Part shown: in pieces, positions 44,048 to 44,289 of the stretch
Numbering within the stretch: position 1 is the first letter of the stretch
Layout: each line of letters begins with the position of its first letter
Source of the DNA: Octopus vulgaris
Taxonomy: Eukaryota
DNA: 64,000 nucleotides
Reading direction: 5' to 3'
Assembly: GCA_951406725.2 (NCBI GenBank)
Contig: OX597828.1
Coordinates: 43,462,001 to 43,526,000, forward strand
The notes under the pieces: generated by a model
Seen by the model: only the letters and a program-made list of their open reading frames with translations
Databases searched by the model: none
What the model was told of the DNA's origin: nothing
Made by a program: the position numbers and the translations under genes

Positions 44048-44289
44048 TTATTCAACAATATTAAGGAATGGCCCTGACAAGCCATTCGACCCACTAGAAG
44101 GAGCAGCCAAACTCAAACCGCTAAATAGTTGTAATTCTGAAATCAAAGGAGAAATAAAGACATTTACCCTTATCATCTTTGGACTATGCATAGTTTCGAC
44201 ACTTTGGTAAACCCATTTAATTAAATTAAATTAAATTTGTTTACATCTGGCCTGTCTCGTCAGCAAAGAAGCCAAGGAAAAAAAAAAAA
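44048..44289 (-). mobile_element. About 240-bp non-coding element in (TA)n carrying a hammerhead
   Basis: Unique island flanked by (TA)n on both sides, with the shared motif CTAGAAGGAGCAGCCAAA. Confidence 0.75.
44176..44269 (-). ncRNA. Canonical type-I hammerhead ribozyme with extended stem II
   Basis: TCTTTG-CTGACGA-GACA[...GTAAAC...GTTTAC...]TGTC-GAAA-CTAT gc ATAG-TC-CAAAGA. All core nucleotides are present, with a G10.1-C11.1 pair and the GUC site between 44182 and 44181. Confidence 0.85.

Follow-up and report, generated by a model that had tools for sequence, protein, structure and literature searches.

Hammerhead ribozymes with a palindromic loop 3 are known to cleave as dimers (Cervera and De la Pena 2014, PMC4209133), and in Xenopus only one of nine predicted retrozyme dimers cleaved in vitro (10.64898/2026.07.22.740005). 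Pseudoknots joining stems I and II were reported in about 40% of the hammerhead representatives surveyed, in all three types (Perreault et al. 2011, PMC3088659). Penelope-like elements (PLEs) are described as leaving 5′-truncated copies, partial tandems, inverted arms and a one-end tail, with a bias for (TA)n (Craig et al. 2021, PMC8557442), and a purified PLE acting on AT-rich targets has two internal points from which reverse transcription begins, and mainly used uncut RNA as its substrate in vitro (Frangieh et al. 2024, PMC11167929). The window, that is, the whole 64,000-nt stretch of Octopus vulgaris contig OX597828.1 (positions 43,462,001 to 43,526,000), contains on the minus strand at 44269-44176 an intact type I hammerhead RNA motif, which is predicted to be self-cutting. 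We read it as part of a 5′-truncated retrozyme-type copy that was likely pasted into (TA)n by a Penelope-like enzyme and is likely a dead end, and we put the probability of this reading at about 0.8.

The consensus elements CUGANGA, GAAA and UH were all present in the motif. The GAAA precedes the 12-nt palindrome, C17 corresponds to 44182, and the cut is predicted between 44182 and 44181 (Table 1). All parts of the hammerhead proposed in the initial annotation were found at their minus-strand positions, and no descriptor match of equal quality occurred in 100 dinucleotide shuffles of the window. The extended stem II was also recognized there correctly as to its components, since the GACA/UGUC base is followed by GUAAAC/GUUUAC and an (AAUUU)n tip, but the helix is discontinuous: its segments of 4, 6 and 8 bp are separated first by an 8x5 internal loop and then by a 2x2 loop. 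The motif is enlarged to 44278-44167 by a distal stem I, in which 44278-44273 pairs with 44172-44167; neither this stem nor a GGY/RCC pairing discussed below figured in the earlier description.

Table 1. Positions of the retrozyme copy, its flanks and the parts of its hammerhead in the window
Feature	Position	Strand	Basis or remark
5′-truncated copy of the 469-bp unit	44036..44281	-	unit positions 370-469 then 1-147; BLAST, 94% identity to the L008 unit
(TA)n tract at the 3′ end of the element	43755..44048	.	inferred target site
(TA)n tract at the 5′ end of the element	44289..44343	.	
Type I hammerhead, proximal stems and core	44176..44269	-	descriptor match, coordinates, covariation
Stem I, 5′ strand	44264..44269	-	UCUUUG/CAAAGA, 44269-44264 with 44181-44176; two-sided change in 5 of 6 pairs, 36 rows
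Catalytic core CUGACGA	44257..44263	-	G5 = 44261, G8 = 44258; sequence
Stem II, 59 nt	44198..44256	-	4-bp proximal helix (44256-44253 with 44201-44198), internal loop, AU-rich distal hairpin
Palindromic stem III, 12 nt	44183..44194	-	weak hairpin or intermolecular duplex
Distal stem I, 3′ strand	44167..44172	-	partner overlaps and competes with the extra pairing
Extra pairing, 5′ strand UUGGCU	44270..44275	-	predicted; adjoins stem I
Extra pairing, 3′ strand GGCCAG	44247..44252	-	predicted; within the stem II internal loop

For comparison across the family, 195 ribozymes were parsed, giving 91 variants, and 36 rows were picked by hand for alignment after truncated chimeras, near-duplicates and several degenerate singletons had been dropped; five further rows were added for an anchored count (41 rows). 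Judged from these sequences, stems I, II and III covary across subfamilies. Twelve of the 16 named pairs were changed on both sides, including all four pairs of the proximal stem II helix, which supports three helices with an open stem I. In the 36 rows 95.8% of the cells were paired, compared with at most 47% in slid-register controls, and none of 500 shuffles, which ignore the relatedness of the rows, reached as high a value. Stem II was 52-78 nt long in all 41 representatives, so the earlier description of this stem as unusually long holds against textbook motifs but not within the family, and the long AU-rich stem II is a family trait, nothing peculiar to the window copy. Some seven further hammerhead-like motifs, encountered incidentally in the loci retrieved, share the long AU-rich stem II and have differing self-complementary stem III sequences (L005:35-110, L012:2693-2750, L014:2596-2669, L064:626-697, L068:39-123, L069:451-536 and L082:2957-3036), suggesting that such length is normal for this genome. 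Variation was also seen in the core. An A.A mismatch at the 10.1-11.1 position occurs in the subfamilies of loci L145, L154, L160, L161 and L169, one of which is young and lies in arrays and is therefore apparently still mobile, and a CCGAUGA core (U4 to C) occurs in several amplified subfamilies (L033, L092, L097, L108, L142, L149 and others). A minimal hammerhead-like motif with a CCGACGA core lies at L009:1780-1900 (minus strand) in a common repeat tail, and a similar tail is present in L010.

A model score had been proposed as a check of the motif; in a local scan no Rfam hammerhead model matched it at E<=10. This is likely due to the long stem II, and an Rfam match is no biological criterion. 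Among 150 of the 381 Rfam matches listed for the whole window, only microsatellite-driven miRNA matches were seen. Since the family is missed by the Rfam models, similar retrozymes may be undercounted.

By comparison of its copies, the host element is a repeat of 469 bp that encodes no protein and fits the non-LTR retrozymes. The full unit at locus L008 has a GC content of 0.34 and a longest ORF of 59 codons, and the family is characterized by one type I hammerhead per non-coding unit with GC below 50%. The search of the 2.8-Gb genome gave 45 scored matches from 2,000 candidates. A 22-mer of the subfamily had 141 exact matches in the genome, and 252 matches were found for a sister variant of stem III; a less strict pattern for the wider family had 2,443 matches compared with seven for the reversed control. 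One sister subfamily, very young by its 98-100% identity among 40 matches, includes an array of seven ribozymes, the six 488-bp units of which are 0-1 differences apart. Same-strand pairs about 470 bp apart were found in the window copy's own subfamily as well, and 21 of 50 loci contained more than one unit. When folded as circles, all nine units examined were better than their shuffles (z -3.4 to -9.0, 15 shuffles each). Contigs of four presumed-RNA runs, in which strand and circularity were unreadable, covered 21-29 of the 30 bins of the L008 unit at 85% likeness, and one record among those listed bridged the cut site by at least 31 bases on each side. At L196:196-3669 the young subfamily forms a two-armed palindromic array of about 4 + 2.5 units, the outer limits of which fall at unit positions 128 and 235. 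No title or abstract listed in the literature searches described this family; it belongs to a known class and a prior description is possible.

The ends of the copies indicate how they were inserted. Among 72 segments from 50 loci (29 selected by a query covering the first end site, the rest by the ribozyme only), 65 ended at unit position ~147 or ~230 and 59 ran into TA, while their 5′ ends were scattered. Eighteen head-to-head inverted insertions were found, 16 of which have one end of each class and none of which has two alike. The copies display the PLE-type traits of 5′ truncation, partial tandems, inverted arm, tail and microsatellite target. On this analogy the two-ended inverted insertions are likely a Penelope-like footprint, with a PLE enzyme as the putative helper. 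Copies spanning the cut site cannot derive from a cleaved linear monomer, which suggests that the RNA copied was either circular or a multimer left uncut. The genome has elements combining RT and GIY-YIG in open frames of 781 codons. Penelope-like ORFs with RT, a CxxC linker and GIY-YIG, which by their domain order we take to be Neptune-like, were observed in L067, L072, L079 and L086, and their many genome matches in 781-codon frames suggest a recently active family.

The window copy fits this pattern. It spans the cleavage site, lacks about half of the unit, and its edges are common to most of 29 other loci. BLAST found no same-family partner elsewhere in the window; a weak match at 16653-16696 was rejected as a second copy, being low-complexity sequence. 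The hammerhead had been singled out as the best preserved; its copy proved ordinary, with seven differences from the majority of the 16 closest copies, only one of which lies inside the ribozyme, in the distal loop. It is intact and probably a dead-end insertion. Taken singly it is of little weight, and it is the family that is useful. The copy sits in the (TA)n tract directly after a long inverted-repeat insertion (~41090-43775), the outer ends of which carry motifs of a second hammerhead family (43699-43749 on the plus and 41114-41164 on the minus strand) with a CUGAAGA core, a short stem II that has a U.U at its base, and a 3-4-bp stem III; another copy of this family was found in L087. Mos1/Tc1 transposase remnants, a LINE-like remnant and a 504-codon RT fragment were also observed (window 51538-52138, 33231-33629 and 59201-59754, and L185:4143-5654).

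Further analysis of the 41 rows revealed that a GGY immediately above stem I is complementary to an RCC in the stem II internal loop. As MAFFT misaligned this strand, the pairing was counted by an anchored script; since a pattern served to locate the two G-C pairs, their occurrence in 41 of 41 rows is by construction, and several singleton variants that break the pairing were excluded from the rows. The third pair was C-G in 33 rows, U-A in five, U.G in three and C.A in none. On a flank-based tree the five U-A rows form one clade (100/97) with a U.G row as sister, which corresponds to a single path C-G > U.G > U-A and to one event of full compensatory change; four of these five rows additionally gain a neighbouring A-U pair. 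The flanking pairs were kept in only 22, 21 and 33 of the 41 rows. The offsets of the pairing on stems I and II are correlated (rho 0.52, although the rows are not independent), which is what a pseudoknot would produce. The pairing may act as a pseudoknot, as an OFF hairpin or in both ways; we consider it likely that GGY/RCC holds the two stems together as a pseudoknot, with a possible second use as an OFF hairpin over the core.

Two alternative readings concern the ribozyme itself. The palindrome could be merely a 4-bp hairpin with a self-complementary loop in a ribozyme that cuts well as a monomer, a reading to which we grant some chance but which we do not favour. Stem III can indeed form four pairs and a UGCA loop, compared with the 1-2 bp described for dimer-dependent motifs in PMC4209133, and the covariation of its outer pairs is equally compatible with a hairpin. 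However, the predicted energy of the hairpin is +0.4 kcal/mol versus -15.9 kcal/mol for the duplex, the hairpin has a predicted probability of 0.05, and the four central bases, which are unpairable in a hairpin, remain palindromic across the rows, including a two-sided loop change UGCA -> UAUA (one event in one subfamily). Stem III was self-complementary, G.U allowed, in 97 of the first 100 matches listed for a pattern with eight free positions, which are dominated by one young subfamily. As far as the sequences go, self-complementarity has been kept through several changes, which supports cleavage as a dimer, as the initial annotation had suggested from the palindrome. The other alternative, which we find rather unlikely, is that GGY/RCC is an inhibitory hairpin only, hiding CUGANGA and sparing the circular RNA, while the active ribozyme relies on other contacts. 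Circles have been argued to need some block (PMC7229834), the nested hairpin has a negative energy in 40 of 41 rows, and its probability is 0.4 in the window fragment; with 120 nt downstream it exceeds 0.2 in 22 of 41 rows and stem I exceeds 0.5 in only two of the 41, although folding software is unable to score a pseudoknot, which makes this comparison one-sided. Against a hairpin only, it is just 3-4 bp (about -0.2 to -2.4 kcal/mol in several subfamilies), its register follows the stem lengths, and the position of the canonical stem I-stem II contact U1.7, present in the window copy, lacks conservation, being U in only 26 of 41 rows. As for the window copy, its 116-nt fold is unexceptional (z -1.5, 19 of 200 shuffles as good), the active fold is predicted 2.1 kcal/mol above the minimum even for the isolated motif, and the predicted probability of stem I is 0.96 in the isolated motif versus 0.01 in the whole fragment, where co-transcriptional folding could nevertheless favour the active form. 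In our judgement the isolated motif would quite probably cleave in vitro.

The remaining alternatives concern the origin and effect of the insertion. The unit could be the pseudo-LTR of an autonomous Penelope-like element and the window copy its solo stub; this we hold to be improbable. The insertion footprint is the same as that of PLEs, and a relationship between animal retrozymes and pLTRs has been reported (10.64898/2026.07.22.740005), but copies that extend 5′ enter another unit and pure arrays exist. PLE fragments near units in L023 and L091 were rejected as partners: in the cases inspected a microsatellite lies between them and the unit, and we take them for nested insertions. No RT + GIY-YIG ORF contiguous with the unit was found in the loci sampled, nor an autonomous element with the ends of the unit in 30 of at least 150 GIY-YIG matches or in four wide inverted loci. 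The earlier likening to minimal pLTR hammerheads also disagrees with the canonical 6-bp and 4-bp proximal stems and the non-coding retrozyme unit, and the accompanying statement that minimal pLTR motifs have a short stem II is at odds with PMC4209133, which describes a larger, not shorter, helix II. Still less probable is the idea, raised in the initial annotation, that the copy lies in a sense intron and cuts the host pre-mRNA. It draws on the intact motif, so close to the majority of its nearest copies, and on long introns, which could conceal exons from a scan. No host exon was recognized among the 95 ORFs of the window and 67 of 244 candidates from 264 kb (the window and 100 kb on each side), which is a weak test for short exons; only transposon domains, and no host-protein domain, exceeded the curated cut-off, and the window copy bears no sign of selection. 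A host role of the window copy is unlikely, and we retain the reading as a truncated retrozyme-type insertion.

For the retrozyme-type family we propose that source arrays would give a multimeric RNA cut at every ribozyme, mostly by two ribozymes pairing via the palindromic stem III, and that ligation would close the RNA of single units into circles. After a nick made by the helper enzyme in (TA)n, copying would begin at either of two fixed positions inside the unit and would continue past the cut junction. A more speculative extension, which we advance tentatively, is that one short helix is used twice, as the pseudoknot clamp during dimer cutting of nascent multimers and as a core-covering OFF hairpin in the finished circle, which Penelope-like enzymes would copy from two fixed starts, one per target strand. 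If true, it would answer how metazoan retrozyme circles escape re-cutting and who mobilises them, the helix being a concrete candidate for the missing block that keeps the circles intact. Such a pseudoknot or switch was not found in the papers searched; the word "pseudoknot" occurs 0 times in the main text of PMC7229834. The many subfamilies provide a natural mutational series for the long stem II, the palindromic stem III and the candidate pseudoknot, and the two-ended inverted insertions make the proposed, unproven mobilization of animal retrozymes by PLEs testable.

Compared with the metazoan non-LTR retrozymes (Cervera and de la Pena 2020, PMC7229834; Li, Clavereau and Pollet 2026, 10.64898/2026.07.22.740005), the family shares non-coding units of low GC content that each carry one type I hammerhead, a range from monomers to multimers, structured circles and the presence of PLEs in the same genome. 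Its units of 469-491 bp are longer than the 150-450 bp first described (PMC7229834) and lie within the 51-972 bp given in 10.64898/2026.07.22.740005. It differs from what these sources describe in the 52-78-nt stem II, the 12-nt palindromic stem III, the predicted Watson-Crick pairing of stems I and II, the two fixed 3′ ends and the inverted arms in (TA)n. With the pseudoknot-stabilised hammerheads (PMC3088659) it shares a short stem I-II pairing, the register of which is constrained by stem lengths; unlike those described, the predicted 3-7-bp helix has its partner in the internal loop of a long stem II, occurs in an animal retrozyme and can also fold as a predicted inhibitory hairpin. The minimal hammerheads of PLE pseudo-LTRs (PMC4209133) have in common with it the type I topology, a palindromic helix III region, predicted dimer use and many solo truncated copies, whereas here a 6-bp stem I with a distal helix, a 4-bp proximal stem II and a full 12-nt stem III region are present and no linked RT + GIY-YIG ORF was seen in the loci sampled. 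Finally, the insertions agree with those of PLEs (PMC11167929; PMC8557442) in AT-rich or (TA)n targets, 5′ truncation, partial tandems, an inverted 5′ arm and two internal starts giving a one-end tail, but the tail is about 85 bp here compared with 30-40 in PLEs, and it belongs to an element that encodes no protein.
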